Translations under genes and position numbers: made by a program
Assembly: GCA_965204735.1 (NCBI GenBank)
Contig: OZ242008.1
Location: 3,520,001 to 3,584,000 of the forward strand
Origin: Longimicrobiales bacterium
Lineage (GTDB): Bacteria > Gemmatimonadota > Gemmatimonadetes > Longimicrobiales > Gaopeijiaceae
Direction: 5' to 3'
Length of the DNA: 64,000 bases
Shown: in pieces, positions 14,349-58,471 of the stretch
Layout of the letters: the number at the start of each line of letters is the position of its first letter
Position numbering within the stretch: the stretch's first letter is position 1
Notes under the pieces: model-generated
Told to the model about the DNA's origin: nothing
The model's database searches: none
Seen by the model: the letters and a program-made list of their open reading frames with translations, nothing else

Positions 14349-15931
14349 GCGGATCGACCGCCGCCGGTCCCGGTCCCGCCCGGGCCTCCGGCGAAGCGCC
14401 CTGCGACGCGGCCCGGCTCTTCTTCGGCAGCTGCGTCGCGCTCGTCGCCACGTCGGTGGCCTTCGCCACGGTGGGCGCGGTCATGTTCGACCTGAAGGGC
14501 GAGTTCCTCCTCTCCAACGCCCAGGTCGGATGGATCGCCGGGGTGGCGCTGGGAGGGTTCGCGCTCTCCCAGCTCCTGTTCTCGCCGCTTTGCGACACCC
14601 TGGGGATGCGCTTCCTGCTCCGGCTGGCCTTCGTCGGCCACCTGGCCGGGTCGCTTGCGATGGTCTTCGCGGGCGGCTTCGGCGCCCTCTACGCCGGCGC
14701 CTTGGTGCTGGCCATGGCGAACGGCTTGGTGGAGGCGGCTTGCAACCCTCTGGTGGCGGCGCTCTACCCCCGCGACAAGACGGTGAAGCTCAACCAGTTC
14801 CACGTCTGGTTCCCCGGCGGGATCGTGCTCGGAGGAGTGGCGGCGTACGCCCTGGACGCGGCCGGGCTGGGCTGGTGGCAGCTCAAGATCGGATTGATTC
14901 TGATTCCCACGCTCGGCTACGGCGTCCTCTTGCTCGGGCGCCGCTTCCCCCCGACGGAGGGCGTGCGTTCCGGCGTGTCGATGCGCGCGATGTTCAAGGC
15001 CGCCCTGACCACGCCTCTCATGCTGCTCATGCTGGGGTGCATGGCCCTGACCGCGTCCGTCGAGCTGGGACCCAACCGCTGGATCCCGGCCGTGCTGGAG
15101 GCGGGCGGGATGCCCGGGATACTCGTGCTCGTCTACATCAACGGGCTGATGGCGGTCCTCCGCTACAAGGCAGGACCGGTCGTGCACCGCTTGTCGCCCA
15201 CGGGAATCCTCCTGGCGTCGGCGGTGGCGTCGGGGGCGGGGCTGCTGTGGCTGAGCGCCGGGGGCTCCGCCTGGTCGGTGTTCGCCGCGGCCACGGTGTT
15301 CGCCGTCGGCGTCTGCTACTTCTGGCCGACGATGCTGGGGTTCGTCTCGGAGCGGGTGCCCCGCGGCGGTGCGCTGGCCCTGGGCTTGATGGGCGCAGTG
15401 GGGATGGCCGTCGTGGGCTGGGGCACGTCGCCGCTGATGGGCAAGATCGCCGACCGCCACGCCCACCAGGAGCTTCCGGAAGACGCGGTGGTCCTGACGC
15501 TGGCGGAAGCCCGGGGCGCTCTGGAGTCCCAGTCGCTGCGCACGCCTGGACCGGAAGGAGATGACTTGCGCTCCGCCCTCGCCGCCACGACGGCGGTGCT
15601 GGCCTCGGTGGACGAGAACGGCTCGCTGCCGCCGGTCGCGACGGCCAATGCGCTTCGGGCCGTGATCTCGTCGGGCTCCACTTCGCCGGCGGTCGACCGG
15701 GCCTCGGCCCTCCTGGGGCCGGCGGAGAACCACGGCGGACTCGTCTCCTTCCGCTACGTCGTGCCTCTCTGCGGCGTCCTGGCGCTCGTCTTCGGCGCGC
15801 TGCACGTCCGGGACCGCGCTCGCCGCCGAAGCCCCCCCCCCCCCCCCCCCCCCTATGAATCCTTCGCTCGGCGGCGCCCGACGGTTGCAGGGCCGGAGCC
15901 GCGTAGACGCGGGGAACGATGGACACTATGA
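14345..15931 (+). CDS. MFS transporter (3' end depends on C22 tract)
   Basis: 12-TM pattern, NGLVEAACNPLVAALYP, FHVWFPGGIVLG; ATGA overlap with upstream gene. Confidence 0.88.
   Translation: MSGSTAAGPGPARASGEAPCDAARLFFGSCVALVATSVAFATVGAVMFDLKGEFLLSNAQVGWIAGVALGGFALSQLLFSPLCDTLGMRFLLRLAFVGHLAGSLAMVFAGGFGALYAGALVLAMANGLVEAACNPLVAALYPRDKTVKLNQFHVWFPGGIVLGGVAAYALDAAGLGWWQLKIGLILIPTLGYGVLLLGRRFPPTEGVRSGVSMRAMFKAALTTPLMLLMLGCMALTASVELGPNRWIPAVLEAGGMPGILVLVYINGLMAVLRYKAGPVVHRLSPTGILLASAVASGAGLLWLSAGGSAWSVFAAATVFAVGVCYFWPTMLGFVSERVPRGGALALGLMGAVGMAVVGWGTSPLMGKIADRHAHQELPEDAVVLTLAEARGALESQSLRTPGPEGDDLRSALAATTAVLASVDENGSLPPVATANALRAVISSGSTSPAVDRASALLGPAENHGGLVSFRYVVPLCGVLALVFGALHVRDRARRRSPPPPPPPYESFARRRPTVAGPEPRRRGERWTL
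15832..15853. repeat. C22 homopolymer
   Basis: 22 consecutive C. Confidence 0.95.
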
Positions 15932-15961
15932 GTCCTTCGCTCGGCGGCGCCCGACGGTTGC
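15853..15961. repeat. 36-bp direct repeat pair with 37-bp insert
   Basis: ctatga(a/g)tccttcgctcggcggcgcccgacggttgc at 15853-15888 and 15926-15961. Confidence 0.9.
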
Positions 15962-15962
15962 G

Positions 15963-17165
15963 GTGAACCCTCACCTCGGTCGGAAGCTCCGATACGGGAT
16001 GGTCGGGGGCGGTCCAGGGGCCTTCATCGGCGGGGTCCACCGGACGGCGACGAGACTGCACGGGGAATGGGAACTGGTTGCCGGGGCCTTCTCTTCTTCG
16101 GCGGCGCGCTCGCGGGAGCAGGGCCGGGCGCTGGGGCTGGACCCGGCAAGGGTCTACGACGACTACCTCCAGATGGCGAAGGCGGAGGGGGCCTTGCCGA
16201 AGGACTCGCGCATCGACGCCGTGGTGGTGGCGACGCCGAACCACCTTCACCATCGCGTCGCCAAGGCGTTTCTGGACGCGGAAGTGCACGTGGTCTGCGA
16301 CAAGCCGATGACCACGACGGCGGCGGACGCGGAGGAGCTGGGCCGGGCCGTGGAACGGGCTCGCCTCGTCTTGGCCGTGACGTACAACTACACGGGCTAT
16401 CCGATGGTCAAGGAAGCTCGCCGCCAACTCTCGGACGGTCGCCTCGGCACGCTGCGCAAGGTCGTGGCCGAGTACTCGCAGGGCTGGCTGGCCAAGCGCC
16501 TGGAGGAATCGGGCCACAAGCAGGCGGCGTGGCGGCTGGACCCGGCGCAGGCCGGTCCGTCGTCGGCCGTGGCCGACATCGGGTCCCACGCGCACAACTT
16601 GATTCGCTACGTGACGGGACTTCAGGTCGAGCAGGTCTTCGCCGACGTGGCCAGCTTGGTGCCGGGTCGAGCGATGGAGGACGACGCGGGGGTGCTGCTC
16701 AGGTTCGAGGGAGGCGCCCGGGGCGTGCTCACCGTGAGCCAGGTGTGCGCCGGCGAGGAGAACGGGCTGCGGCTGCGCGTCTACGGGGAGGCGGGCGGCT
16801 TGGACTGGCGGCAAGAGCGGCCGAACGAGCTGCGGCTGCTCCTTCCCGACGCGCCGGCCCAGCGGCTCACGAGAGGGAGTCCCTACTTGTCGGCGGCGGC
16901 CCGACACGCGGCTCGCCTGCCTCCCGGCCACCCGGAGGGCTTCATGGAGGCGTTCGCCAACATCTACCTGAACGCAGGGCGCACCATCGGCGCCGCGCTG
17001 GCGGGCACGAACCCCGACCCCCTGGAACGGGATTTTCCGGACCACGTCGACGGCCTCCGGGGAGTGCGCTTCGTGGAGAGCGTGCTGCGGTCGGCTCGAG
17101 AAGAGCGCTGGACGGCAGTGGGGCCGGCGAGGCGTGCCCGCGACGAGCGCGCGCACGCGCCATGA
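15963..17165 (+). CDS. Gfo/Idh/MocA oxidoreductase
   Basis: GMVGGGPGAFIG, ATPNHLH, CDKP, DIGSHA, PGHPEGFMEAFANIY; GTG start chosen (ATG 15855 also in frame). Confidence 0.9.
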   Translation: MNPHLGRKLRYGMVGGGPGAFIGGVHRTATRLHGEWELVAGAFSSSAARSREQGRALGLDPARVYDDYLQMAKAEGALPKDSRIDAVVVATPNHLHHRVAKAFLDAEVHVVCDKPMTTTAADAEELGRAVERARLVLAVTYNYTGYPMVKEARRQLSDGRLGTLRKVVAEYSQGWLAKRLEESGHKQAAWRLDPAQAGPSSAVADIGSHAHNLIRYVTGLQVEQVFADVASLVPGRAMEDDAGVLLRFEGGARGVLTVSQVCAGEENGLRLRVYGEAGGLDWRQERPNELRLLLPDAPAQRLTRGSPYLSAAARHAARLPPGHPEGFMEAFANIYLNAGRTIGAALAGTNPDPLERDFPDHVDGLRGVRFVESVLRSAREERWTAVGPARRARDERAHAP

Positions 17166-18715: not shown

Positions 18716-20437
18716 AGTCGCTCGGAACACGACGCCGTCGGCCAGCTCCGCCTCCACGACCATGCTCGGCAGGGAGCGCAAGTCCTCTTCGTCGTACTCG
18801 AAGCCGACCTCCGCATCGAACTTGAACCACACGAGGCGGAGGACTTGCCCCTCCTCGATTCGTTGCTTCGCCCTCTCCAGCTGCCTGGGGAAGCCGCGGT
18901 ACTTCCCAATCACGTCTTCCCCGGCCTTGAGAGCCAGCTGAGCATGGAGCAGGCCGAAGCGGGAGTTCGCATGCACGCTTGCATCGACAGGGTTTTCCCG
19001 CAGGTACTGGATCGTCTCCGACTCGTCCCAGTAGGCCGTGTTGAACAACTTGCCGTGATACCCCGACTCCATGGCCTGCGCCGTTCGGGCGATGCTGGTC
19101 CGCGTTCCCAGCGCCAAGCTTCCGGCGCCTCCGGCCAGCACCACGCCAGCGACGCTCGTCTTGACCCAGGTCCTCCAACCGGCGGCAGCGAGCCCGATCC
19201 AGCGGTCCACGCCGACGGCGGCGGCGATCAGCAACGGCACGTAGAGCGGAATCAGGAAGTGCCAGCTCATCCCGGGCCCGTCCCCGTCTGCCGCGTCCCA
19301 TGCGCGCCCACTGCTTACTGCAACTACGATGAAGATCGTGTACACCGAGCAAAACACGCCAAGCACCGTCAACGGACTCGCGTTCCAAGCGCGTCGCGAG
19401 GACCGTCGGCCGGCCGAAGCGACGCAGACGGCGCCGCATACTGCGACCAGGAGAACGGCGGACGCCCACAGCAACGGCGCAAGCCACTCCGGTCCGCCGG
19501 CTGGAACCACGGCGCTGCGCACCAAGACGGCGACTTGACCAAGCGACTCGAAGACGGACTGGCCCAGGTCGGGGTTGCCGCTGGGCTTGTCCCAGTGCCC
19601 GAAGAGCAAGCGATTGCGCATCGCCACCGCGGCCAGCGGAAGCAGCGACGCGCCCGCGAACGCCGCCGATCGTCCAGCCCTGGCGACAAGACGTTGCCGA
19701 GGTTGCAGGAGCAGCAGCAGGGCGCCCGTGGCGACAACGGTGACGCCGGCGTATCGAGTGGTTGCGGCCAACGCCGAGCACGCGGCCGCCAGGGCCAGGG
19801 AAGTCCGGGTTGGGCGGCGGTTCAGAAAGGAGTCCAGATGCATCAACGCGAGCAGCGAAAGAAGGACGAAGAGCGCCTCGGTCAATGCGGTCGAAGCGAA
19901 GTGGTCGAGATAGGGAGAGGTCGCAACTGCCAGCGTCGCTCCAGCGGCCAGCAGGCGCGAACCGACCGTCCGGCGCAGCCAAAGGCCCGCGGCCAGGATC
20001 GTCAGCCCGAAGGCCGCGGCGTTGACCAGGCGCGAGGCGTCGTGGGGCTCTATCCCGGCAAGATGGCCGACTGCGGCCAGCAACAGTGGAAACAGGGGTG
20101 GCCATGGAAGCAGAGCGTTGCCCAAGAAGTCTTGGAAGCCATGCCCGGCAAGCAGGTTCGAGGCGATTGAGATGTAGGAGACGCTGTCCACATCGATGCC
20201 GGCCCCGTAGGCGCTCGTGCGAACCAGAACGTGAAGTGTTCCCAAGCACGCGAACGCGGCCCCGAGCAGGGTCAGGCCCAAGTGGTCGCGGCGGCGATCA
20301 ACGCTTCGGTGCGGGGGTTGACTCCCTTGCGGGCGGGCATGAGCGTGCGTGGACGGCGGCACTCGGGGATCGCCCGTCCGCTCGTCGAGAGGGTCTGCAG
20401 AAGGAACCGCGCCGCGGAACCTGGGAGTCCTCGCCAT
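18650..20437 (-). CDS. GT-C fold (ArnT/PMT-like) membrane glycosyltransferase
   Basis: DSVSY, WPPLFPLLLA, TEALF, TRYAG, many TM segments; start uncertain. Confidence 0.7.
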   Translation of the reverse strand: MARTPRFRGAVPSADPLDERTGDPRVPPSTHAHARPQGSQPPHRSVDRRRDHLGLTLLGAAFACLGTLHVLVRTSAYGAGIDVDSVSYISIASNLLAGHGFQDFLGNALLPWPPLFPLLLAAVGHLAGIEPHDASRLVNAAAFGLTILAAGLWLRRTVGSRLLAAGATLAVATSPYLDHFASTALTEALFVLLSLLALMHLDSFLNRRPTRTSLALAAACSALAATTRYAGVTVVATGALLLLLQPRQRLVARAGRSAAFAGASLLPLAAVAMRNRLLFGHWDKPSGNPDLGQSVFESLGQVAVLVRSAVVPAGGPEWLAPLLWASAVLLVAVCGAVCVASAGRRSSRRAWNASPLTVLGVFCSVYTIFIVVAVSSGRAWDAADGDGPGMSWHFLIPLYVPLLIAAAVGVDRWIGLAAAGWRTWVKTSVAGVVLAGGAGSLALGTRTSIARTAQAMESGYHGKLFNTAYWDESETIQYLRENPVDASVHANSRFGLLHAQLALKAGEDVIGKYRGFPRQLERAKQRIEEGQVLRLVWFKFDAEVGFEYDEEDLRSLPSMVVEAELADGVVFRATSGSRRAGRSGRPFAGRPPPAR

Positions 20438-21698
20438 GTCAAAACCGTACCAAGACGGCGAGGGCGCTGCAACTCGCCGCCGAACCGCGGAGACGGCCGC
20501 CGCCTTCGGCCTGCGACCCGCAAGCCCAAGCCGGAGCCCCGCTGCGTCTGCGCGGGCGGCTGCGGAGACGGCCGCCGCCTTCGACCTGCGACGGTTCAAC
20601 CCGGTGCAGTGGTCGTGCGATGCAAGCTTTGGAGCGGGGGCGCTCGGGCCGCTCGACCTGTTGCCGCCCGGAGCGCCCGCGGCCCGCGTCGAACGACGAC
20701 GCAATCCCCTGCGGCTGCGTCGCTACCACCACGTGGTGGACGTGAAGGCGTATCACGAAGACGCCGCAAGCCGCGCCGGCGAACTGGCCCGGCTGGCGGC
20801 CGCTGGCGTGGTGATTCATGTGGCGGACGACGACGATCGGCTTCGAGCGCTTCTGGATTCCGACTTGCATCGATTCATGAGTGCGCATCCGGGCGCCTTC
20901 GATGCGGGCGAGCGGGAGATGCACTCCATCCGCATGCGCCGCGCGGCGCTGCAAGCGCACTCCTCTTGGTCGCGCGGAAAGAACGCGCCCCCGGTGTCCG
21001 TCGTGGTGGCGAGCAAGCGCCCCGAGATGCTCCCGCGCGTGCTCGACGCGGTGGCTCGACAGACGTATCCTCAACTCGAGCTTGTGCTGGCGGTGCACGG
21101 CGACGCCAAGGGCTTCGATGGAATCGAGGCAACTCGCGAAGCCATGCCCGTTCCTGCGACGGTGGTTCGCGCGCACCGCGACGAGCCCCTTGGCGCCGTG
21201 CTCAACGAAGCTTGCGCGGCCGCATCCGGGACCCTGCTGACGAAGATGGACGACGACGACGTTTACGGCGCCGATCACGTGTGGGACTTGGTGCTTGCTC
21301 GCGTGTACGCGGGCGCCACGCTGGTGGGAAAGGTCGCTCAGTTCGTGCACCTGTCGGACGCCGAACTCACCGTGCATGTCCGGCGGGGGCAGGGCGAGTC
21401 CTTTCGAAGGGAGCTGGCGGGGGGGACGCTGTTGATCGCCCGCTCGGACTTGGAGCGGATCGGGGGCTGGCGGAACGTGCCCCGGGCAGTGGACGGGGCG
21501 CTGGAAGAGGACGTGGTGCGCGCAGGCGGCGTCGTCTACGCGACTCACGGCGCCGGGTTCGTGCTCGTCCGGCACGGCCGCTCCCACACCTGGGGGGCGA
21601 GCGACGCCTTCTTCCTTGAGCTGGCGGACCGCATCGCTCCGGGATGGGCTCCCGCGATCGCCGGGATGGACGGCGAGTGCGGTGCGCGTCTTCCATAG
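20436..21698 (+). CDS. Glycosyltransferase family 2-like, paralog 1
   Basis: VSVVVASKRP, QTYPQLEL, KMDDDDVYG, AGGTLLI; start uncertain. Confidence 0.8.
   Translation: MSKPYQDGEGAATRRRTAETAAAFGLRPASPSRSPAASARAAAETAAAFDLRRFNPVQWSCDASFGAGALGPLDLLPPGAPAARVERRRNPLRLRRYHHVVDVKAYHEDAASRAGELARLAAAGVVIHVADDDDRLRALLDSDLHRFMSAHPGAFDAGEREMHSIRMRRAALQAHSSWSRGKNAPPVSVVVASKRPEMLPRVLDAVARQTYPQLELVLAVHGDAKGFDGIEATREAMPVPATVVRAHRDEPLGAVLNEACAAASGTLLTKMDDDDVYGADHVWDLVLARVYAGATLVGKVAQFVHLSDAELTVHVRRGQGESFRRELAGGTLLIARSDLERIGGWRNVPRAVDGALEEDVVRAGGVVYATHGAGFVLVRHGRSHTWGASDAFFLELADRIAPGWAPAIAGMDGECGARLP
20487..20592. repeat. 31-bp direct repeat pair, 75-bp period, in frame
   Basis: gcggagacggccgccgccttcg(g/a)cctgcgac at 20487 and 20562 (AETAAAFGLR/AETAAAFDLR). 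Confidence 0.8.
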
Positions 21699-28784: not shown

Positions 28785-28990
28785 CCCATGGCGGCCGTGG
28801 CGAGGCGGCCCGCCGCGGAAGAGAGGGCGAGCGACGGCTCCTGACGGGAGGCTCCCAGCGGCGCCGCGGACCTACCGCCCACCGCCTTTCGTGGGCTAGC
28901 TTCAGGGGCTGATTCTTGGCCGTTTGTCACGCGAGCCGGCCCGCGCGCTCCCCTGCCGAAGCCGTCCGCCGACCGTCCGCCGGAGGTACC

Positions 28991-31900
28991 ATGCGCCGCT
29001 TGCCGTCCCACGCTGCCACGCCCGTCGCAGCCCTTGCTTCCCTCTCGACCATCCTCGTCGCGGCTTGCTCCGAGAGCATCGGCCCCTCGGACGTCGAGCC
29101 GCCCGAGCCTCCGCCGCTGCGGATCGCGGGCACCTACGCCGAAACAGGGGCGTACTCGGCCGACGCCCGCGCCATGGCGGACGGTTACAGACTCGCCGTG
29201 GAGATGCTCAACGAGCAGGGCGGCCTCGGCGGGCGCACCGTGCAGCTCGACCTGCGCGACGACGCCAGCGACCCGGGCGCTGCCGCCGAGATCTACCGTC
29301 GGCTGGCGGCGGACAGCACGATCGACCTGCTCCTCGGCCCCTTCAGCAGTCCCGTCACGGAAGCAGTGCTCCCGATCGTGGAGGCGGCGGGACGACCCTT
29401 CGTGGCCTCGATGGCCTCGTCCCCCGAGCTTTGGGAGGATCGGCAGCGCCAGTGGAGCGTCCAGCTTCTGGCGTCCGCCAGGAGCTACCTGCAGGGCTCG
29501 GTGGAGCTGGCCGCCGCGGAAGAGCTCGAGACCGTCGCCCTGGTGTGGGAGGACTCCCGCTTCCCCAGCTCGGTGGCCAGCGGCGTCCGCCAGGCCGTTC
29601 GGGAAGCCGGAATGCGCATCGTCCTGGACCAGTCCTACCCGGTGGGCGCCGCGGACCACGCGGCCTTGGCGACGGCCGTCATGGAGTCGGGCGCCGAGGT
29701 GCTTCTCGGAGGCGGCTACCGGAACGACGGGATCGAGCTCGCCAAGGCCCTGGGAGCAGTGGGACACGCTCCCCGGCTCGTGAGCCTGGTGATCGGCGCG
29801 GCGGACCCGGCGTTCGCCGAGGCGGCCGGCGAGCTGGCTCGCTGCGTGGCCGGCTACACCCCTTGGTCGCCCTCCATTCCCACCCAAGGCGGCTTGGCGA
29901 GCAACGCCGAGTTCGTCGAGCGCTTCAGGCAGGCTCGCGGCCGCGCCCCGGGCTATTTGGCGGCCGGCGGCTTCGCGGCGGTCGAGCTTCTCGCCGAAGC
30001 CGCCCGGGCCACGATCGGTCCTTCGGGCGAGATCGACGACGGCGCCCTGCGGGACTACCTCTTCGCCACCTCCACGCAGACGGTCCTGGGACCCTACGGA
30101 GTCGTCGCCCGCGGCGAGTCCGACGCCGGCGGCCAGCGGGCCCTTGTGGGACTTCAGGTCCAGTGGCAGGACGACGGCGCGGGAGGACTGGTCCAGCGGA
30201 TCGTCCACCCCTCCGCCTTCGCCAACGCCCAGGCGTGCTTCAACCCGCCCGACCCCGATCCGATCCGGGTGGCGGCCACGATCTCGGAGACCGGGCCCAG
30301 GCGGCGCAACGCCACGGACATGCACCGGGGCTACCGCTTGGCGGTCGAGATGCTCAACGAGCAGGGGGGCGTCGGCGGCAGGCCCGTCGAGCTCGTGACG
30401 GCGGACGACGGAAGCGCGCCGCGCACGGCTGCGGTCCTCTACGAGCGGTTCGTCGCGGACACGACGATCGACGTGGTCGTCGGTCCGTACAGCAGCTCGG
30501 TGACGGAAGCGGTGATCCCCGTGGTGGAGGCGGCGGAGATGCCGTTCGTCACGCCGTTGGCTTCCTCCACCGAGCTCTGGGAGGGACAGAACCGCCAGTG
30601 GACGGTCCAGATGGCCAGCCCCGGGCGGGCATCGCTGCGGGGCGCCGTTCAGCTGGCGGCGGAAGCGGGCGCCAGAACGGTCGCCGTCGTCTGGGAGGAC
30701 TCGCGATTCCCCGAGTCGGTGGCCGAAGGCGTGCGGCGGGAGGCCGGCATCAGAGGCGTGCGGATCGTGCTGGCCCGCTCGTTCCGCAGCGGTCGGGCCG
30801 ACCACGAACGGCTCGTCGCGGCGGCCAAGGAGGCGCGGGCGGACGTCTTCGTCGTCGGCGCCTACTTCGACGACGGAGTGGCGTTCGTCAGGGCCATGGA
30901 AGAGGTCGACTACACGCCCATGCTGGCGGCTTTCTCCACGGCGCCGGCCGACGCGGCGTTCGTCGAGGCGGCGGGCGCGAAGGCGCGGTGCGTGGCGGGC
31001 AACGCTTCATGGGTCCCGGCGGTCCGCACCCGGGGACCGATCGCCGACGGCGCCGAGTTCGCGCGACGCTATCGGGAGGCTTACGGCGGCGCGCCGAACT
31101 ACCGCTCGGCGTCTGCGTTCGGGGCCGTGGAGCTCCTCTCCATGGCACTCTCCGAGTCGATGGGGGAGGACGGCGAGATCGACGACGCCGCCGTGCGGGA
31201 CTACCTCTTCGCCGCGGACGTCGAGACGGTCCTGGGGCCGTACGCGGTCTTGCCCTTGGGGGCGGCGGCGGCAGGCAGCCAGTACCGGTTGCAGGGCCTC
31301 CTGATCCAGTGGCAGGACGACGGAGAGGGCGGCTTGGTGCAGCGGATCGTCCATCCGAGACGCCAGGCCGACGGGGAGGCGTGCATTGCCCCCCGCCCGC
31401 TCCGAATCGCGGGCACCTACCCGGCGACCGGCGTTCTGAGCCCCGATGGAGCGAACATGCACAGGGGCTACGCCCTTGCCGTGGAGATGCTGAACGAGCG
31501 GGGCGGGATCGCGGGCCGTCCCGTGGAGCTGACGCTCCAAGACGACCGGAGCGCTCCCCGGACCGCGGCCGAGATGTACGAGGAGTACGCGGCCGACGAG
31601 ACGATCGATCTGCTCCTGGGTCCGTACAGCAGTCCGATCACCGAGGCCGTGCTGCCGGCGACGGAAGCTGCGGAGCGGCCCCTGATCGCTGCGGGCGCCG
31701 CGTCGTCCGCGCTCTGGGCCGGCCGAAACCGGCGGTGGAGCGTGCAGCTGATCAACCCGGCCCGAACGTTCCTGCAAGGAGCGGTGGAGATGGCGTCGCA
31801 GCGCGGCGGCGTCACCACGGCAGCACTGGTGTGGGAAGACACGCGCTTCCCCGAGTCGGTGGCCGAAGGCGTGCGGGCGGCGGCGGCCGACGCCGGCGTG

Positions 31901-33679
31901 AAAGTGGTGATGGACCGCTCCTACCGGGCGGGCCGCGCCGACCACGAAGCCCTGGCCGCGGCGGCCAAGGAGGCGGGCGCGGAGCTCTTCATCGGCGGCG
32001 GCTACCGAAACGACGGCATCGCCTTCACCAGGGCCGTCGCCGCAGTGGGCTACGAGCCCCGGCTGATCAGCCTCGCCCTCGGCCCCGACGACCCGGGCTT
32101 CGCGGAAGAGGTGGGCGACGAGCTGGCCCGCTGCGTGGCCAGCCAGGTCCAGTGGCTGCCCTCGCTCCGCCACCGAGGTTTCTTGACCGACACCGAGACC
32201 TTTGCCCGGCGCTTCCGGGAGCGCTGGGGAGTTCCGCCCCACTCCCACAGCGCAACCGCCTTCGGCGCCTTGGAGCTGCTGGCGCAGGCGACCGCTGCGA
32301 CCGTCGGTCCCAACAGCGAGGTCGACAACCGCGCCCTTCGCGACTACCTCTTCGCCACCACCGCCGAAACGGTGACCGGTCCCTACGGGGTCGCTCCCCT
32401 CGGGGACCCGGAGGCCGGCGTGCAGCGGGCGCTCAAGAGCCTCCAGGTCCAGTGGCAGGACGACGGGCAGGGCGCCTTGGCGCGACGGATCGTCCACCCG
32501 GAGGCCGCCGCGCAGGCGCGGCCGTGCTTCAACGGGCCGGCCCCGATCCGGATCGCAGCCTCCTACCCCGCCACCGGCTACCTGCGCAACGACGGCGGCA
32601 AGATGCGCAACGGCTACGAGCTCGGCGTGCGGATGCTCAACGAGCAGGGGGGGATCGGCGGGCGGAAGGTGGAGCTGACGACCCGCGACGACGGCAGCGA
32701 CCCCGAGAGGGCCGCGGCGATCTACCGCGAGTTCGTCGCGGACGAGACGATCGATCTGGTGCTGGGCCCTTACGCCAGCCCGATCACGGAGGCCGTGATT
32801 CCGGTCGTCGAAGCGGCGGAGCGTCCGTTGATCGCGGCGATGGCGGCGTCCACCGAGCTGTGGGTCGGTCGGGACCGCCGGTGGAGCGTGCAGATGCTCA
32901 ACTCGGCCCACACCTACCTGCTCGGCTCGGTGGAGCTCGCTGCCGCGAACGGGGCCGCGACGGCGGCTCTGGTGTGGGAAGACACGCGCTTCCCCGAGTC
33001 GGTGGCCGGGGGCGTGCGCGCCGCCGTGGCGGAGCACGGCCTGCGGCTCGTGATGGACCAGTCGTATCCGGCAGGGGCCGCCGACCACGAGGCGCTGGCC
33101 AGGGCGGCGAAGGAAGCGGGCGCCGATCTCTTCGTCGGGGGCGGCTACCTGGACGATGCCGTCGGCCTCACCAAGGCGGCCGCGGCCGTCGAGTACGTGC
33201 CCAAGCTCATGAGTTGGAACATCGGACCCGCCGACCCCAACTTCGCCGAGCTGGCGGGCGACGCGGCCCGGTGCGTCGCGGGCAACACGCCATGGATCCC
33301 GTCGATCCGCACCAGAGGCGCCCTTGCCGACAGCGAGACCTTCGTTCGGCGCTACGAGGAGGCGTTCGGAGACGTGGAGGGCTACCATGCCGCCGGCGGC
33401 TTCGGCGCCGTCGAGCTCTTGGCCGAAGGGCTGCGGGCGACGATGGGCCAGGACGGCGAGATCGACGAAGCGGCCTTGCGGGACCATCTCTTCGGCGTTT
33501 CCACCGAGACGGTCATGGGACCCTTCGCGGTGGCCCCCTTGGGCCACGAGGCGGCGGGCACGCAGCAGGCGTTGACCGGCCTCCAAGTCCAGTGGCAGGA
33601 CGACGGCGAAGGAGGACTGGCGCAGATGATCGTCCATCCGGCGTCCGCGGCCAACGCCGAGGCCTGCTTCAACCGCTAA
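28991..33679 (+). CDS. Lipoprotein with four tandem LivJ-type (branched-chain amino acid family) substrate-binding domains
   Basis: LVAAC lipobox; four ~380-aa repeats each with GYxLxVxMLNExGG, GP(Y/F)xS, VWEDxRFP, QWQDDG. Confidence 0.9.
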   Translation: MRRLPSHAATPVAALASLSTILVAACSESIGPSDVEPPEPPPLRIAGTYAETGAYSADARAMADGYRLAVEMLNEQGGLGGRTVQLDLRDDASDPGAAAEIYRRLAADSTIDLLLGPFSSPVTEAVLPIVEAAGRPFVASMASSPELWEDRQRQWSVQLLASARSYLQGSVELAAAEELETVALVWEDSRFPSSVASGVRQAVREAGMRIVLDQSYPVGAADHAALATAVMESGAEVLLGGGYRNDGIELAKALGAVGHAPRLVSLVIGAADPAFAEAAGELARCVAGYTPWSPSIPTQGGLASNAEFVERFRQARGRAPGYLAAGGFAAVELLAEAARATIGPSGEIDDGALRDYLFATSTQTVLGPYGVVARGESDAGGQRALVGLQVQWQDDGAGGLVQRIVHPSAFANAQACFNPPDPDPIRVAATISETGPRRRNATDMHRGYRLAVEMLNEQGGVGGRPVELVTADDGSAPRTAAVLYERFVADTTIDVVVGPYSSSVTEAVIPVVEAAEMPFVTPLASSTELWEGQNRQWTVQMASPGRASLRGAVQLAAEAGARTVAVVWEDSRFPESVAEGVRREAGIRGVRIVLARSFRSGRADHERLVAAAKEARADVFVVGAYFDDGVAFVRAMEEVDYTPMLAAFSTAPADAAFVEAAGAKARCVAGNASWVPAVRTRGPIADGAEFARRYREAYGGAPNYRSASAFGAVELLSMALSESMGEDGEIDDAAVRDYLFAADVETVLGPYAVLPLGAAAAGSQYRLQGLLIQWQDDGEGGLVQRIVHPRRQADGEACIAPRPLRIAGTYPATGVLSPDGANMHRGYALAVEMLNERGGIAGRPVELTLQDDRSAPRTAAEMYEEYAADETIDLLLGPYSSPITEAVLPATEAAERPLIAAGAASSALWAGRNRRWSVQLINPARTFLQGAVEMASQRGGVTTAALVWEDTRFPESVAEGVRAAAADAGVKVVMDRSYRAGRADHEALAAAAKEAGAELFIGGGYRNDGIAFTRAVAAVGYEPRLISLALGPDDPGFAEEVGDELARCVASQVQWLPSLRHRGFLTDTETFARRFRERWGVPPHSHSATAFGALELLAQATAATVGPNSEVDNRALRDYLFATTAETVTGPYGVAPLGDPEAGVQRALKSLQVQWQDDGQGALARRIVHPEAAAQARPCFNGPAPIRIAASYPATGYLRNDGGKMRNGYELGVRMLNEQGGIGGRKVELTTRDDGSDPERAAAIYREFVADETIDLVLGPYASPITEAVIPVVEAAERPLIAAMAASTELWVGRDRRWSVQMLNSAHTYLLGSVELAAANGAATAALVWEDTRFPESVAGGVRAAVAEHGLRLVMDQSYPAGAADHEALARAAKEAGADLFVGGGYLDDAVGLTKAAAAVEYVPKLMSWNIGPADPNFAELAGDAARCVAGNTPWIPSIRTRGALADSETFVRRYEEAFGDVEGYHAAGGFGAVELLAEGLRATMGQDGEIDEAALRDHLFGVSTETVMGPFAVAPLGHEAAGTQQALTGLQVQWQDDGEGGLAQMIVHPASAANAEACFNR

Positions 33680-33699
33680 GCCGCGACCTCGCCGGAGCC

Positions 33700-34809
33700 G
33701 TGCCCGAGCACCCCGACGACCAGCGGCCCCGAATCCGCCTGAGCACCCTTTCCCACGGGGCCGGGTGAGCGTGCAAGCTCGGCCGGGCCGAGCTGGCGCA
33801 GGTCCTGCGTCCACTTCTACCTGAGCACGAGGGCGGCTCGCGGCAGGTCGCGGGCGGCGCCGTTCGCGCGGCCGGCGACCCCCAGGTGCTGGTGGACGCC
33901 AGCACGGGAGACGACGCCGCCGTGTACTTGGTGGCCCCCGACCGGGCGCTGGTGGTCACCCTCGACTTCTTCACGCCGATCGTCGACGACCCCTACGACT
34001 TCGGGCGCATCGCGGCGGCCAACGCCCTCTCGGACGTGTATGCGATGGGAGGGACGCCGCTCTTCGCCCTCAACCTCCTCTCGTTCCCCCGGGGACTGCT
34101 CTCCGAGGGGCTGGCCGAAGAGATCGTCCGAGGCGGCGCCGACAAGGCGGCGGAAGCGGGCGTGCCGGTGCTGGGGGGCCACTCCATCGACGATCCCGTG
34201 CCCAAGTACGGGATGGCGGCCGTGGGCGAGGTCCATCCGGAGAAGGTGCTGGCCAACGACCGCGCGCGACCCGGCGACCGCCTCGTTCTGACGAAGCCCC
34301 TCGGCACGGGAGTCGTGGCGACCGCCGTGAAGAACGGCGAGTGCCCGTCGGAAACCCTTGCCGCGGCGGTGGAGACGATGGCGCGGCTGAACCGAGACGC
34401 CGCCGAGGCCGCCCGGGCAGCGGACGCCCGGGCCGCCACCGACGTGACCGGCTACGGCCTGACGGGACACCTTCACGCCATGCTCCAGGCGTCGGGGGCG
34501 TCGGCCCGGATCGACTCCGCCCGGGTTCCCCTCTTGAAGGGGGCGGTGGAGCTCGCCGAGGCGGGCCACGTCCCCGGGGGCACCCGGCGCAACTTGGCGG
34601 AGGCCGACAACCACGTCTCCTGGGAACGCGACGTTCCGGCGGTCCTCAGGCTGCTCCTCGCCGACGCCCAAACCTCGGGCGGTCTGCTGATCGCCTGCCC
34701 GCCGGATCGAGCGGCGCGGCTCCTGAAGGAGGCAGCGGCCAGAAACGTTCCCGCCGCACAGATCGGCCAAGTCGAGGCGGGTCCGGGCGGGCGGATCCTG
34801 GTGGTCTAG
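33700..34809 (+). CDS. selD: Selenide, water dikinase, selenocysteine-containing (UGA at codon 23)
   Basis: GTG 33700, RLSTLSHGAG-TGA-ACKLG in frame with GDDAAVY, DFFTPIVDDP, ANALSDVYAMGG, TDVTGYGL, DAQTSGGLL. Confidence 0.92.
33766..33813 (+). promoter_or_regulatory. Putative bacterial SECIS element
   Basis: After TGA: hairpin agctcggc/gccgagct and GGCGCAGGTCCTGCGTCC hairpin resembling the GCAGGUCUGC fdhF SECIS apex. Confidence 0.6.
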
Positions 34810-37675: not shown

Positions 37676-39412
37676 ATGCTCCCGCGCCGGCTTCCGCCTC
37701 TCGCCCTGGCGTTCTTCGACCGTCGCCGACCCTGCCGGTCCTGCGCCGTCGGCCCGCGCCGGCTTCCGCCCCTCGCCCTGGCGTTCTTCTGCGTGGCGTC
37801 CGCGTCGCCCATGAGCGCCCACGCCCTTCAGCACAGCATGGCCGCCCGGTCGACGGTGTACGCGCCGCGGGCGGCGGCCGCAACGAGCCAGCCGCTGGCC
37901 ACCTCCGCCGCGCTTGCGATCATGGACCGCGGCGGCAACGCGGTCGACGCGGCCGTGGCGGCCGCCGCCGTGCTCAACGTGGTGGAGCCGCACATGACCG
38001 GCGCCGGGGGAGACGCCTTCGCCATCGTGTGGTGGGCCGAGACCGGAGAGCTGGTGGGGCTCGACGCCAGCGGCCGGAGCGGGAGCGGGATGACGGTGGA
38101 GGCGTTGCGGAGCCGGGGCCGCGAGCGGACGCCCGGGTCGGGGGCCGAGGCGGTGACGGTTCCCGGCGCCGTGTCGGGGTGGCACGCCCTGGTGGACGCC
38201 TACGGGAAGCTGGAGCTGGCCCAGGTCCTGGCGCCGGCAATTCGCATTGCAGAAGAGGGCTTTCCGGTCACGCCGATCATCGCCCGCCAGTGGGCTGCGG
38301 CAGCGGAGAAGCTGGCGGCGGACGAAGGCGCCCGAGCCACCTACTTGGTGGACGGGCAGCGGGCGCCGAGGGCGGGCGAGTGGTTCGCCAACCCGGACTT
38401 GGCCCGTTCGTTCCGCCGGATCGCCGACAAGGGTCCGGGCGTTCTCTACGGCGGCGCGCTGGGAGAAGAGCTGGTCCGGGGCGTCCAGGCGCTGGGCGGC
38501 TTCGTCACGCTCCAGGACATGGCGGCCCACCAGCCCCGCTGGGTCGAGCCCCTGAGCGCCGACTTCCGGGGCTGGACGGTCTGGGAGCTGCCGCCCGCGG
38601 GACAGGGCATAGCGGCGCTGGAGCTGCTGAAGCTGCTGGAGCCCTTCGACCTGGAGGGCATGGGCCACAACTCGGCCGAGTACCTGCATCACCTGATCGA
38701 GGCCAAGAAGGTGGCCTTCGCCGACCTCCACCGCTACATCTCCGACCCCGAGAGCATGGAGATCGACCCCCGGTCGCTCTTGGAGCCCGGCTTCGTGGAC
38801 GCCCGCCGGCGGCTCATCGACCCCCGGGCGGCGGCCGAACGGGTCGAGCCCGGCCCCGCCGTCACCGACTCCGAGACGATCTACCTGGCGGTCGCCGACG
38901 CGGACGGCAACATGGTGTCGTTCATCAACTCGATCTACTCGTCCTTCGGTTCCGGCGTGGTGGTCCCGGGGACCGGCTTCGCGCTCCAGAACCGGGGCGC
39001 CGGGTTCGTGATGGAGGACGGGCACCCCAACCAGGTCGGGCCTCGCAAGCGTCCCTTCCACACGATCATTCCCGGCTTCGTCACCAGGGACGGCGCGCCC
39101 CGCATGGCGTTCGGGCTCATGGGCGGCTCCATGCAGCCCCAGGGCCACGCCCAACTGCTCCTCAACATGCTGGTCTTCGGCATGGACCCGCAGGAAGCAG
39201 TGGACGCGGCGCGCTTCCGCCACTTCTCCGGGCGGTCGGTGGCGGTCGAGGGAATCGACGCGGAGACGGCGGCCGATCTGGAAGCCAGGGGGCACGAGCT
39301 CGCCGACTGGACCCGCGCGGACTTCGGCGGCGCCCAAGTGATCGTTCGGCTCTCCAAGGGGTGGGCCGCCGCCTCGGAACCGAGAAAGGACGGCCACGCC
39401 GCCGGCAACTGA
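37676..39412 (+). CDS. ggt: Gamma-glutamyltransferase
   Basis: GGNAVDAAVA, VEPHMTGAGGD, ETIYLAVAD, KRPFHTIIP, MGGSMQPQGH. Confidence 0.92.
   Translation: MLPRRLPPLALAFFDRRRPCRSCAVGPRRLPPLALAFFCVASASPMSAHALQHSMAARSTVYAPRAAAATSQPLATSAALAIMDRGGNAVDAAVAAAAVLNVVEPHMTGAGGDAFAIVWWAETGELVGLDASGRSGSGMTVEALRSRGRERTPGSGAEAVTVPGAVSGWHALVDAYGKLELAQVLAPAIRIAEEGFPVTPIIARQWAAAAEKLAADEGARATYLVDGQRAPRAGEWFANPDLARSFRRIADKGPGVLYGGALGEELVRGVQALGGFVTLQDMAAHQPRWVEPLSADFRGWTVWELPPAGQGIAALELLKLLEPFDLEGMGHNSAEYLHHLIEAKKVAFADLHRYISDPESMEIDPRSLLEPGFVDARRRLIDPRAAAERVEPGPAVTDSETIYLAVADADGNMVSFINSIYSSFGSGVVVPGTGFALQNRGAGFVMEDGHPNQVGPRKRPFHTIIPGFVTRDGAPRMAFGLMGGSMQPQGHAQLLLNMLVFGMDPQEAVDAARFRHFSGRSVAVEGIDAETAADLEARGHELADWTRADFGGAQVIVRLSKGWAAASEPRKDGHAAGN
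37681..37789. repeat. 37-bp direct repeat pair with 35-bp insert, in frame in the ggt N-terminus
   Basis: cccgcgccggcttccgcc(t/c)ctcgccctggcgttcttc at 37681-37717 and 37753-37789. Confidence 0.92.
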
Positions 39413-40151: not shown

Positions 40152-40157
40152 GCGAGG

Positions 40158-41852: not shown

Positions 41853-42146
41853 TCAGCCGTGGTAGCGGGCCTGGAGGAGCCAGAGGAGGGCCATCGTCGC
41901 CGCCTGCACCAGAAGGACGCGCGCCAGGGTTCCGCCCGCGGGAGGAGCGTCGGCGGGTCCAGCGGGTCCGGGTTCGGCGGGTCCAGCGGGTCCGGGTTCG
42001 GCGGGTCCAGCGGGTCCGGGTTCGGCGGGTCCAGCGGGTCCGGGTTCGGCGGGTCCAGCGGGTCCAGCGGGTTCGGAGTCCGGTGGATCCGGCGTCGGGG
42101 GCCGAGTTGCGGTTCGGCTCGCCGGCGGGGCGTCGTCGTGGGACAT
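41853..42146 (-). CDS. Small membrane protein with PAGPAEPG repeats, possible symporter accessory subunit
   Basis: Pro-rich N-terminus, single C-terminal TM, stop 21 bp before the symporter start. Confidence 0.55.
   Translation of the reverse strand: MSHDDAPPASRTATRPPTPDPPDSEPAGPAGPAEPGPAGPAEPGPAGPAEPGPAGPAEPGPAGPADAPPAGGTLARVLLVQAATMALLWLLQARYHG
41953..42075. repeat. 24-bp tandem repeat, four perfect copies plus a partial
   Basis: gcgggtccagcgggtccgggttcg. Confidence 0.95.
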
Positions 42147-44363: not shown

Positions 44364-44466
44364 CTCGCCCTCGGAACAACGGCGGCGCGACTCGACCGAT
44401 GATGGGCCCGGTCACGAGGATGTTCGGGCCACGGACTCGCTCTCGGAACAACGGAGGCGGCGCGAC
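44364..44466. repeat. 28-31-bp direct repeat pair, 72-bp period
   Basis: ctcgccctcggaacaacggcggcgcgac (44364) vs ctcgctctcggaacaacggaggcggcgcgac (44436). Confidence 0.75.
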
Positions 44467-46701: not shown

Positions 46702-47967
46702 ATGACTTCCTCCCCGCGAACGCCCCCGCTCGAAGTCCTCCTCGGCCTCGGCCGCCGGCGCTCCGCCGGCAACCCCGATCGCGCTTCAGGCCCAGGCGAC
46801 CCGAAGTCCGTCGTCACCCCCGACGCCTTTGCGGTGGCCCCCGAGCTGCTGGGCGTCCCCCTCGCGGCTCCTTGGCGACGGCTCGCGGCTCTTGTTCTCG
46901 ATCTGGTCTTGATCGGCTGCCTGCAGCTGCTGGGATGGCGCTTCGTCCTCGGCGGAGCGGCGCTGATGCTCTTCCTGGTGTTGGTTCGCCCTTCCGGCGG
47001 CGCTCGGCCAAGTCCACTGCGAAAGGCGGCCGCCGGCTGCGGCGGCGCGCTGGTGCTGGTCGTCACCGTGCTCGTTTCGCTGGTCCCCATCCTGCTCAAG
47101 AACAGGATGCTGGTCCCGACGCCGGACGGCGCCGGCTTCACGATCCGGGCGAGCCCCGCCCACGACACCACAGGGGCGGACGACCCGGACGCGCGGGACG
47201 GCGTGGGAACGTCGATCGTCCTGGGGACGCAAGGGTCCTTGGCGACGACGCAAGATTCCTCGGCGACGACGCAAGGGTCCTTGGCGACGACGCAAGATTC
47301 CTCGGCGACGACGCAAGATTCCTTGGCGATCCAGGGCTCCGTCGAGGCGCTGGACTCCGTGGAGGCGCTGGACTCCGTCGAGGCCCCCGACGCCCTGGGA
47401 ACTGCCGACACGACGACTGCGGGCCCAAACTCGGCGGCCACGGGCTTCGACACCTTTGCGGCGGTCTTCATGCACGTTGCCGACAGCGTAGCCGCCGCCG
47501 ACACCGCAGCCGCCGACCTCGGCGACGGATCGCGGGCGACCGCCTTCGACTGGATCCGCGACGCCGCCGACGAGGCGGGTCTGGTCTTCGGCTGGGGCAC
47601 CGTCTACATCACGCTGTTCCTGGCCCTCTGGGACGGGCGGACGCCGGGCAAGCGGGCGCTCGACCTGCGGGTCGTGCGCGTGACCGGCGGGCCGTTGGGG
47701 CTGCTCATGTCCTTCGAGCGGGCGGGCGGCTACGCGGCGGGGTTCGCTACCGGGCTGCTGGGGTTCGCCCGGGCGTGGTGGGACCCGAACCGGCAGGCGA
47801 TCCACGACAAGATCGCCGAGACCGTGGTGATCCGGGAGAAGTTGGCCAGGGAGTCGGGGCTTTGGGGCGCGGAGGCGCGGCGCGACATTCCGGCGGCGGA
47901 CACGGGCCGCGCTCCGGCCGCGTCGACGAAGCGGAGCAACGAACCGAAGGAGGAGGAGACCCGATGA
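46702..47967 (+). CDS. RDD family membrane protein with internal repeats
   Basis: APWRRLAALVLD, GRTPGKRALDLRVV, RQAIHDKIAETVV. Confidence 0.85.
   Translation: MTSSPRTPPLEVLLGLGRRRSAGNPDRASGPGDPKSVVTPDAFAVAPELLGVPLAAPWRRLAALVLDLVLIGCLQLLGWRFVLGGAALMLFLVLVRPSGGARPSPLRKAAAGCGGALVLVVTVLVSLVPILLKNRMLVPTPDGAGFTIRASPAHDTTGADDPDARDGVGTSIVLGTQGSLATTQDSSATTQGSLATTQDSSATTQDSLAIQGSVEALDSVEALDSVEAPDALGTADTTTAGPNSAATGFDTFAAVFMHVADSVAAADTAAADLGDGSRATAFDWIRDAADEAGLVFGWGTVYITLFLALWDGRTPGKRALDLRVVRVTGGPLGLLMSFERAGGYAAGFATGLLGFARAWWDPNRQAIHDKIAETVVIREKLARESGLWGAEARRDIPAADTGRAPAASTKRSNEPKEEETR
47227..47385. repeat. In-frame 21-bp (x5) and 18-bp (x2-3) tandem repeats
   Basis: Encode TTQGSLA/TTQDSSA and VEALDS. 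Confidence 0.9.
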
Positions 47968-55020: not shown

Positions 55021-55095
55021 CGATGCGCCGGATCGGAGACGTCGCGCGCGCCGACGCCCGTTCCGAATGCTCCCGCCGAGTGTAGATTTCCCCGG

Positions 55096-55362
55096 ATGAG
55101 GACGGTCGAAGGAGAGGCCCGCCGGGCGCTGTCGAGGCTCCGCAGGTCCGTGGAGAAGGCCCGCCGGGAGCTGGGCGCGCTGCGGGCCGCGTTGGAAGAG
55201 GCCGAAGGAGGGGACTTTCCCTCGGACAAGTACGAGGAGTGCGACGAGCGCTTGGCTGCGACGACGGGCTGGATCGGCGAAGAGGAGGCGCGCCTCCGAG
55301 CCAAGACGCTGCGCGCCGGCGGGCTGGAGCCAAGCACGCTCCGGAGGTCGCCGGAACGATGA
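55096..55362 (+). CDS. Hypothetical coiled-coil protein
   Basis: 88 aa; ATGA overlap with the next gene. Confidence 0.65.
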   Translation: MRTVEGEARRALSRLRRSVEKARRELGALRAALEEAEGGDFPSDKYEECDERLAATTGWIGEEEARLRAKTLRAGGLEPSTLRRSPER

Positions 55363-57146: not shown

Positions 57147-58471
57147 TTCCAGAGCCGCTGCCGGCCCTGGCCGACGCGCTGGGCGCGTGGTTCGCGCGCT
57201 GGGAGGCGCCGGATCAGCGCCCGACGGCGACGGCGCCCGATGTCGCGGGCGCGCCCCCTCGCAACGTGACCGCCAAGGCGCCGGATCAGCCTCCGACGGC
57301 ATCGGCGCCCGAGGCCTTCGACGACGACGCCTTCAACCACTGGGCCTTGCGGGTCCACGCCTGCCAGCGCGCGACCACTCCAGCGCTGCGCCGCTTCTGG
57401 GACGCGGCGGGCTGCCGGTCGCCGACGCGCTGGGAAGAGATCCCTCCCGTTCCCGCTGCCGCCTTCCGGGACGTCGTCGTCGGCCCGGAGGCGGCGGAGG
57501 CGGTGTTCCGCACCAGCGGCACCACCGGGGGGCAGGGAAGAAGGGGCGAGCATCGCGTCGCCAGCTTGGCCCTCTACCGAGCCGCCGCCCGCGGCAACTA
57601 CCGCCGCCACCTCTTGCAGGGGACGAGGTCCACCCGCGTCGTGTCCTTGGTCCCCAACCCGGTCGCCGTGCCGGAGTCGTCCCTGGCGGCGATGGCGGGG
57701 TTCGTCTGCGGGGAAGCGGAGGTGTCGGCCGCGACCTGGGCCTTCGACGCGAACACCGGGGTCGACGCGGAGGCCGTTCGGCGGGCCGCGGCCGCTTCCC
57801 TCCGTTCCCAGGAACCCGTGCTGCTGCTGGCCACCGCCTTCGCGCTCGTCCAGCTCATGGACGCGGTCGAAGGCGCCGGCGGGGGCTCCGCGGACGAAGG
57901 GCTCCGGCTCCCGCCCGGGTCCCGAGTCATGGAGACGGGCGGCTTCAAGGCGCGGACGGCGGAGGTGGACCGGGAGTCCCTGTACCGCCGGATCCGCACC
58001 GTCCTGGGAGTGCCCGAGTCCCACGTGACCAGCGAGTACGGGATGACCGAACTTCTCTCCCAGGCATACGACGCCGTCGCCGGCGCCGCCGGACCCCCGG
58101 CTGCCCGGGTTCATCGGTTTCCGCCTTGGGTCCGAACCCGCGCCCTGGACCCGTCCACCCTGACGCCGCGGCCGCCCGGCCGTCCCGGACTGCTGGCCCA
58201 CTTCGACCTGGCCAACGCGGGCTCCGCTTGCCCCGTGCTCACAGAAGACGTGGGGGCGACGACCGGAGACGGCGGCTTTCGTCTCCACGGGCGCGCGTCG
58301 GGCGCCGTTCCCAGGGGCTGCTCCCTGCTGGCCGAAGCTTTCTTCCGGGCCGCCGACACTCGGGCTGGGACCGCCGACGCTCGGCGCGCGACCGCCGGTG
58401 CCACAGGGTCCATGGGCGCCCCGGAAGCGCCCAGCCGCCCGGCGACCGCCGAGGCCCCCGGCCGGTCGTGA
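57143..58471 (+). CDS. LuxE/PaaK-like acyl-protein synthetase
   Basis: FRTSGTT, METGGFK, SEYGMTELLSQ, DLAN; start uncertain (CTG at CTGA overlap or GTG 57266). Confidence 0.8.
   Translation: MIPEPLPALADALGAWFARWEAPDQRPTATAPDVAGAPPRNVTAKAPDQPPTASAPEAFDDDAFNHWALRVHACQRATTPALRRFWDAAGCRSPTRWEEIPPVPAAAFRDVVVGPEAAEAVFRTSGTTGGQGRRGEHRVASLALYRAAARGNYRRHLLQGTRSTRVVSLVPNPVAVPESSLAAMAGFVCGEAEVSAATWAFDANTGVDAEAVRRAAAASLRSQEPVLLLATAFALVQLMDAVEGAGGGSADEGLRLPPGSRVMETGGFKARTAEVDRESLYRRIRTVLGVPESHVTSEYGMTELLSQAYDAVAGAAGPPAARVHRFPPWVRTRALDPSTLTPRPPGRPGLLAHFDLANAGSACPVLTEDVGATTGDGGFRLHGRASGAVPRGCSLLAEAFFRAADTRAGTADARRATAGATGSMGAPEAPSRPATAEAPGRS
57204..57312. repeat. 37-bp direct repeat pair with 35-bp insert, in frame
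   Basis: aggcgccggatcagc..ccgacggc..cggcgcccga at 57204-57240 and 57276-57312 (4 mismatches). Confidence 0.85.

Follow-up and report, generated by a model that had tools for sequence, protein, structure and literature searches.

How did one stretch of bacterial chromosome come to hold five pairs of direct repeats with almost the same period? The stretch in question (hereafter the window) is 64,000 nucleotides of a Longimicrobiales bacterium, C1:3520001-3584000 of the single contig (C1; 4,140,498 bp, 69% GC) that makes up the genome under study, G000; the best-labelled sequencing runs that contain DNA of this organism are sponge metagenomes, and of the 14 runs found none is recorded as RNA. 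An earlier note on this DNA had proposed that the pairs are fossil off-target integrations by Cas1-Cas2 of a CRISPR system, each leaving a duplicated piece of host sequence on either side of a spacer-sized insert, or else the products of an unknown integrase with a similar ruler. The computational analysis described here supports the first of these proposals, and we put at roughly 93% the probability that such units, which prove to be scattered throughout the genome, are fixed off-target spacer integrations by the Cas1-Cas2 of two CRISPR subtypes.

All five pairs were recovered as described, the two copies being identical at 35 of 36 bp at 15853/15926 (period 73), 36 of 37 bp at 37681/37753 (period 72), 33 of 37 bp at 57204/57276 (period 72) and 30 of 31 bp at 20487/20562 (period 75). 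The repeat ends of this last scar are probably eroded. The fifth pair, at 44364/44436 (period 72), is identical at 22 of 24 positions without gaps and can be matched over about 28-31 bp once a 3-nt indel is allowed; it is an older, eroded unit. All five are of the size class that corresponds to a type I-G CRISPR array, as set out below.

A narrow range of periods is a property of the whole genome. With CRISPR arrays and tandem repeats removed, repeat pairs were concentrated in two sharp spikes, one at 60-61 (4, 16, 18 and 4 pairs at periods of 59, 60, 61 and 62, respectively) and the other at 72-75 (6, 39, 11, 14 and 15 pairs at 71, 72, 73, 74 and 75); each remaining period between 40 and 160 held 0-6 pairs, mostly 0-1, and a codon-block shuffle control gave 2 pairs over periods 55-80. 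Application of strict rules, after removal of both arrays, tandem repeats and two hits to leucine-rich repeats (LRRs) at C1:701-703 kb, left 93 units, of which 32 belong to a short class (28 bp duplicated around 32/33 bp) and 61 to a long class (37 bp around 35-38 bp). The same rules yield, for each off-class period, a background of 0.26 and 0.20 hits, which puts the expected number at 2-3 units in place of 93.

These two rulers are also those of the CRISPR systems that the genome carries, about 1.45 Mb from the window; the window itself is without a cas gene, as the earlier note had held. The type I-E system is complete, with Cas3, Cse1, Cse2, Cas7, Cas5, Cas1e and Cas2e above cut-offs and Cas6 just below, and its array (array A) has 56 repeats of 28 bp, with 53 of 55 intervals equal to 61. 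The type I-G system, complete as well, has two effector modules, a Cas4g/Cas1g fusion (above the NCBIfam cut-off) and Cas2, and its array (array B) has 38 repeats of 37 bp, at periods of 72-79, mostly 72-76, with 27 of 37 intervals falling at 72-75. Cas1e, Cas2e, Cas4g/Cas1g and the second Cas2 all score above cut-offs in open frames, and a Cas1 search of the genome found two cas1 genes only, both of them array-linked. The duplication-length modes of the scars, 28 and 37, equal the repeat lengths of the two arrays, and the scar periods of 60-61 and 72-75 compare with array periods of 61 and 72-79. Each spike therefore corresponds to one array, the short class to I-E and the long class to I-G. 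The proposed agreement with array dimensions was thus borne out, the 60-61 class added a second system to the claim, and an unknown integrase is not needed.

The CRISPR loci have some peculiarities of their own. The leader end of the I-G array (C1:2099139-2099240) is aberrant, with a 23-nt spacer, a repeat that is 4 bases short and a spacer of 5 nt, perhaps reflecting sloppy recent integration or deletion, and a transposase-like frame (by our reading) follows the array from C1:2101951 onward. Between the two I-G effector modules lies a frame (L377:5704-7281, C1:2087704-2089281) with a weak, below-cut-off match to the repressor/antitoxin family NF052239, making it a candidate regulator of cas expression. 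The congener G001 (L047) has an I-E leader about 13 bases longer than that of G000 (C1:2075925-2075980), with an upstream T-rich stretch that G000 lacks. At its far end, the I-E array is broken by a fragment of a multi-copy sequence (C1:2079304-2079565), with a perfect scar, C1:2079716, directly behind it.

Further evidence comes from the inserts, some of which can be traced to their source. Twelve of 118 match a distant unique locus almost full-length, the ends of the match coinciding with the insert edges, compared with 7 of 1180 displaced windows (Fisher 5e-9); the 118 were kept from 128 inserts after the 701-703 kb hits and seven further protein-repeat or short hits had been left out. A second donor method gave 10/93 inserts vs 3/372 controls. 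In the window, the 57204 insert corresponds at 37 of 37 nt to C1:4049813-4049849 (insert bases 2-35 together with 3 from copy 2), a donor lying 56 kb from dnaA (C1:3993443). Nine of the 12 donors are found within 0.4 Mb of dnaA, a distance cut that was picked post hoc, and a Kolmogorov-Smirnov test that needs no cut gave p 4e-4. The scars themselves are scarce in that region, which holds 5/93 vs 18 expected. Self-spacer sources centred on the origin have been seen experimentally (PMC5737086, PMC13034035). Among array spacers, 0/90 had a comparable self match, a difference from the 12/118 inserts that may be due to self spacers having been purged from arrays while harmless off-array. The idea that inserts could be mapped to a source accordingly held for the host's own DNA and failed for phage: a phage collection held no match to about 1 kb around the array A start, the 15889 insert gave only partial, chance-level matches to phage sequences, and two window inserts had no exact match in viral contigs. 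Searches for donors of the 15853 and 37681 inserts likewise found none.

Two side observations concern the same material. Two independent inserts come from one dnaA-adjacent gene (YidC-like, by our reading), at C1:3990724 and C1:3991601, about 880 bases apart. Between the scars at C1:2181519 and C1:1622688 there is a weak match, of the insert in one to the repeat region of the other (E 0.009), which could be chance.

Comparison with relatives shows the sites as they are without the units. Three congeners (79-86% DNA identity in one core gene) supplied both flanks at 28 sites, and at 28/28 the congener had neither insert nor duplication, and G000 exceeded it in length by 70 bp or more at 27 of them. 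Clean empty sites include C1:2611480 (excess of 73 vs a period of 74), C1:1834477 and window position 37681, where G001 is single-copy, with a gap of 75 nt. Elsewhere in the window, the 15853 region of G000 exceeds those of G001, G003 and G002 by 102, 67 and 71 bp, respectively, the congeners being without the insert; congeners are 152-169 bp shorter at the 44364 region; and G003 and G001 are shorter by 72 and 129 bp at the 57204 site. No anchored ortholog was found among congeners for the 20487 scar, and a histogram of insertion sizes relative to congeners showed G000 to be longer on balance, with no clear peak at 60 or 72-75. Scar C1:1530101 has both a donor and three empty paralogs, all inside the same genome. 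The single-copy empty sites that the earlier note proposed to look for therefore exist in congeners as well as in paralogs. Moreover, mean divergence between copies is 5% and 7.6% in the two classes, and 12 units have identical copies, C1:616133, 884284, 2852670, 3204886, 3829623 and 3584604 among them; this variation points to events of differing ages.

Donors and empty paralogs also bear on whether the units could be tandem duplications of 60-75 bp with a diverged middle, arising by slippage or by protein-repeat evolution of the kind seen in 24-residue LRRs. The LRR period is indeed 72 bp, and LRR genes do yield period-72 hits, including the two dropped from the strict set; in addition, 3/93 units have 10-12 bases common to insert and flanks, and scars are located in hypervariable linkers. 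Against such an origin, periods of 61, 73 and 74, none a multiple of 3, are frequent, the in-ORF (open reading frame) strict units are not LRRs as judged from translations and flank similarity across the 93 units, and the inserts match distant loci rather than neighbours. A general slippage mutator was not supported either, the tandem-duplication load of G000 (108 per Mb) lying inside the range of its relatives (50-158 per Mb). We consider this explanation highly improbable for the units as a whole; it is largely refuted by the donors and empty paralogs and may explain a few individual units.

A long-read assembly artefact would be a more trivial origin, and it can be judged from independent assemblies. 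The genome is a single-contig metagenome assembly with long homopolymers, one of which adjoins a scar, features that lend the idea some initial plausibility. Contigs were compared from runs of four other studies, whose strains are about 1% different, over a stretch that left out 15853 and 20487. At 37681, the filled allele is continuous in contigs of X1, X11 and X14, the three of four runs for which spanning pieces were listed, and at 44364 it is present in two of four (X11 and X5), thus bearing out in independent data the duplications that the earlier note had reported. A third run at 44364, X1, is without 52 bases (44379-44430) inside the unit, which is partial decay and not clean reversion. 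At 57204, the X11 contig has copy 1 and most of the insert. An artefact is thus refuted at 37681 and 44364, and it sits poorly with the divergence between scar copies and with the frame bias and gene avoidance that reveal selection (see below); we give it a negligible chance. With regard to the homopolymers, 3 of the genome's 27 long G/C runs adjoin I-G-sized scars (window 15832-15853, C1:1530078 and C1:2079705); all three are C-runs on the copy-1 side, and long runs are present in congeners too.

The choice of target differs between the two classes. I-E-sized targets are more like the I-E repeat than 150/150 shuffled repeats (14.66 vs 13.13 +/- 0.48) and are enriched for CCCGCG/CGCGCG/CACGCG relative to GC- and context-matched controls. 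In hairpin strength, the duplicated segments did not exceed GC-matched controls. An idea, formed by eye, that a "GA" marks the leader junction was rejected when a formal test failed, there being no junction dinucleotide in either class. As a separate observation, the word AGATT/AATCT, picked from 512, occurs within 60 bases of 8/32 I-E-sized sites (1.6 expected, p 1.6e-4) and adjoins the repeat at several of them (e.g., C1:683126, 3439591 and 455452), compared with 1/61 in the I-G class; it could be a host-factor half-site.

Selection has left an imprint on where units survive. By gene calls from a home-made dicodon model, which are approximate, 23/95 units lie in called coding sequence vs 81% coding DNA. 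In the I-G class, the period is divisible by 3 in 33/39 units inside extended ORFs vs 5/22 outside (p 3e-6), and the mode outside ORFs is 74, as in array B. Selection has thus removed most in-gene units and kept in-frame ones in this class. The corresponding figures for the I-E class, 11/20 in ORFs vs 3/12 outside, are not significant (p 0.15), and frame selection accounts only partly for its excess of period 60. As for the three N-terminal cases in the window, translations confirm the claim that they add 72 or 75 bp in frame, the gene starts at 20487 and 57204 being provisional. These insertions lengthen the gamma-glutamyltransferase leader peptide, the LuxE-like N-terminal region and the glycosyltransferase N-terminus. 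The suggestion that such events remodel protein termini stands insofar as the sequence is changed; evidence of benefit was not found, and most units avoid called genes.

Taken together, five of seven testable features of an off-target product were found, namely duplication length, insert length, matching cas1/cas2, a captured insert and empty sites; the other two, a motif beside the donor and likeness of the target to the repeat or the leader-repeat junction, gave mixed signals. Several observations nevertheless weigh against attributing the units to Cas1-Cas2. Fourteen of the 32 I-E-sized units have a period of 60, which array A never shows, and 106/118 inserts are without a donor. I-G-sized targets are unlike the I-G repeat (87/150 shuffles were equally good), their flanks show no leader similarity, and a Gibbs search of the targets of both classes gave no motif above null. 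The protospacer-adjacent motif (PAM) signal is weak: among I-G donors, when one base of slack is allowed, TTN was found at 3/9 (p 0.12) and TYN, a motif chosen post hoc, at 7/9 (p 0.04), and among I-E-class donors read by eye AAG, the usual type I-E PAM, was found at 1/5. Some donors have 3-5 bases in common with the repeat edge. The length excess surpasses the period at most anchored sites because the regions are hypervariable, the scars lying in fast-changing linkers; C1:3259223, which has no length excess, may be a false positive. In close strains, no empty allele was seen at the 37681, 44364 and 57204 sites. Finally, congeners with 85-89% identical Cas1 proteins are almost scar-free.

Some of these points would fit equally with a mechanism independent of Cas proteins, whether break repair with templated insertion driven by microhomology or some unknown integrase, that copies chromosomal pieces with duplication of the target. 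Such a process could account for the shared bases at donor junctions (including that of window 57204), for the weak PAM signal, for the lack of a target motif in the 37-bp class and for the scars being missing from congeners with the same CRISPR types. It would, on the other hand, require two fixed rulers, each equal to one resident array, and would leave aside the resemblance of the 28-bp class to the I-E repeat, the fact that the only cas1 genes found are the two array-linked ones, and the regular mini-arrays produced by repeated insertion at one site. We therefore rate it as very unlikely, somewhat less so than slippage.

On the favoured reading, the 28+32/33 class is the work of type I-E Cas1-Cas2 and the 37+35-38 class that of type I-G Cas4/1-Cas2, by a series of steps. 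A prespacer would be captured, at least sometimes from the host chromosome and mostly from near the origin, the source being visible in the donors and the capture deduced from it. The integrase would then join it to both strands, one repeat length apart, and gap filling would duplicate the target, a geometry seen in the scars with a chemistry that is established knowledge. Type I-E chooses sites loosely resembling its own repeat and type I-G sites without detectable sequence preference, as the statistics above show. No guide RNA is expected from off-array units, so self-derived inserts would escape autoimmunity there, in keeping with 12/118 inserts and 0/90 spacers. Selection purges most in-gene hits and, as seen for I-G, retains those that keep the frame and lie in leader peptides, linkers or termini, and a second hit at some sites has generated two-spacer mini-arrays.

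Such second hits are well represented. Six loci (C1:724206, 3057375, 1622700, 3122381, 2906575 and 2182742) have three repeat copies and two different right-sized spacers, and a duplicated unit is found at C1:574973 and 955797. A seventh locus with three copies and two different spacers, the I-E-sized C1:3584541-3584692 (window 64541-64692), lies about 600 bases beyond the window end; its first copy is older and decayed, the two other copies, of 28 bp, are identical, and its target, at 17/28 to the I-E repeat, is among the closest. The two-spacer loci thus form regular mini-arrays at sites that were hit twice. So many double hits among ~90 loci suggest either limited preferred sites or easier re-use of a site once hit. 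In the four 28-bp multi-copy loci examined, copies match the I-E repeat at 7-17/28; because these repeats are far from the native consensus and have no extra hairpin strength, the features by which the resident Cas6 would recognise them, the loci, judged by sequence, do not pass as functional arrays. It is conceivable, and in our view doubtful, that adaptation in this lineage has been a constant source of mutation, with host DNA from near the origin ending up in leader peptides, linkers and promoters and positive selection preserving part of it, and that the two-spacer loci are nascent arrays, at least one of which is transcribed and processed.

The scars appear to be a peculiarity of this lineage. 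In sampled stretches, as opposed to whole genomes, 1.52 Mb from the relatives G001, G002, G003, G008 and G012 held 2 strict units vs 34 expected, and 1.48 Mb from 80 other Gemmatimonadota loci held 3 vs 33 expected, all LRR-like by our reading. G001 has an I-E array of period 61 and a Cas1 identical to that of G000 at 251/295 residues, while G003 has an I-G array with periods of 72-76 and a Cas4/1 identical at 509/575. A Joint Genome Institute (JGI) metagenome scan found no strain above 81% protein identity. As the integrases that misfired are two and unrelated, the likeliest cause seems to be one that they share at the level of the host, e.g., cas over-expression, weaker host-factor targeting or weaker purging. 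Loss of an HU/IHF-family gene was rejected as the cause, as two such genes are present in all 5 genomes searched, and mutS, mutL, recJ and recA are present in 4/4 genomes, with no stops in the matched parts.

The window scars and the genes around them are collected in Table 1. At the 15853 scar, the duplicated part covers the region of the MFS stop codon together with the space before the next gene; as assembled, the MFS frame reads through the first TGA and terminates at a TGA within copy 2, about 30 aa beyond the end of the congener protein. NCBIfam sugar dehydrogenase matches to the following gene are all below cut-off. In the gamma-glutamyltransferase leader peptide, a PRRLPPLALAFF segment is duplicated in G000, a duplication that is not in G001 or G003.

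Table 1. Scars and adjoining features in the window (window coordinates; strand given where it applies)
Feature	Coordinates	Strand	Details or basis
MFS transporter, C-terminus extended over poly-C run and scar	14345..15931	+	Pfam MFS_1
C22 homopolymer	15832..15853	+	Adjoins copy 1 of the 15853 scar
I-G-sized scar	15853..15961		Copy 1 15853-15888, insert 15889-15925 (37 bp), copy 2 15926-15961; period 73
Gfo/Idh/MocA-type oxidoreductase, beginning right after copy 2 of the 15853 scar	15963..17165	+	Congener alignment
Family 2 glycosyltransferase with 25-codon insertion, start codon inferred	20436..21698	+	Pfam Glycos_transf_2, translation
I-G-sized scar	20487..20592		Period 75, 30/31 bp core, in frame, glycosyltransferase N-terminal region
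Gamma-glutamyltransferase	37676..39412	+	TIGR00066 above cut-off
I-G-sized scar	37681..37789		37 + 35 + 37 bp, period 72, in frame in gamma-glutamyltransferase leader peptide
Eroded intergenic scar	44364..44466		Period 72, 3-nt indel between copies
LuxE-like acyl-protein synthetase frame with 24-codon insertion, start codon provisional	57161..58471	+	Pfam LuxE, congener translations
I-G-sized scar	57204..57312		37 + 35 + 37 bp, period 72, in frame near LuxE-like N-terminus

Other repeats of the window are of different kinds. Ordinary tandem repeats of 24 bp and 21 bp, which vary between strains, occur at 41950-42065 and 47226-47330, respectively, and a 1,600-residue frame at 28924-33768, without a Pfam match, contains roughly four repeats of 1,140-1,146 bp each. 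An Rfam search of the window found nothing.

In a 2018 study, Nivala, Shipman and Church reportedly described non-canonical spacer integration and "neo-CRISPR" arrays with the type I-E system of E. coli. The likeness to the units described here, as far as citing papers describe that work, lies in a spacer-sized insert, a repeat-length host duplication away from the array and I-E targets that are loosely repeat-like. The E. coli events were rare products of laboratory over-production, whereas here some 90 fixed, selected and ageing events are found in a wild genome; moreover, the G000 scars come from two subtypes, mostly I-G, and include several two-spacer loci. As citing papers put it, rarer off-target integration was detected in E. 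coli over-producing Cas1-Cas2 (PMC7054753), off-target events might give rise to CRISPR loci (PMC6698737), and natural evidence for off-target integration, from two other species, was called "circumstantial" (10.1101/148544). The I-G (I-U) Cas4/1-Cas2 of Geobacter sulfurreducens resembles that of G000 in having a Cas4g/Cas1g fusion and a predominant spacer of 36 bp, as in the inserts here (PMC6547450); that report deals with on-array acquisition and a TTN PAM and does not use the term "off-target", and the TTN signal at the G000 donors is weak. In vitro, Cas1-Cas2 of Pyrococcus furiosus integrates off-target (PMC6698737) and HU suppresses off-target integration in Thermotoga profunda (PMC13769266). 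In these cases, as in G000, integrases hit non-CRISPR sites, and a DNA-bending host protein can set fidelity, although they were seen in vitro only; the two HU/IHF-family genes of the scar-poor congeners are both present in G000. IHF and leader motifs are likewise described as steering integration (10.1101/2023.05.26.542337). In the literature searched, which left most subscription papers uncovered, there was no report of type I-G off-target products or of a wild genome with fixed scars by the dozen; nothing pertinent was found in PMC8616872 or PMC10011333.

The G000 scars may be viewed as a fossil record of integrase errors and of self-DNA capture, the latter being normally erased from arrays by autoimmunity. 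Two unrelated integrases would each have left their own ruler in one wild genome, making its immune system a source of mutation as well, and repeated integration at new sites would be a route to new arrays. Finally, near scar-free congeners with 85-89% identical Cas1 provide a matched pair for the question of how fidelity is set in nature, type I-G included.

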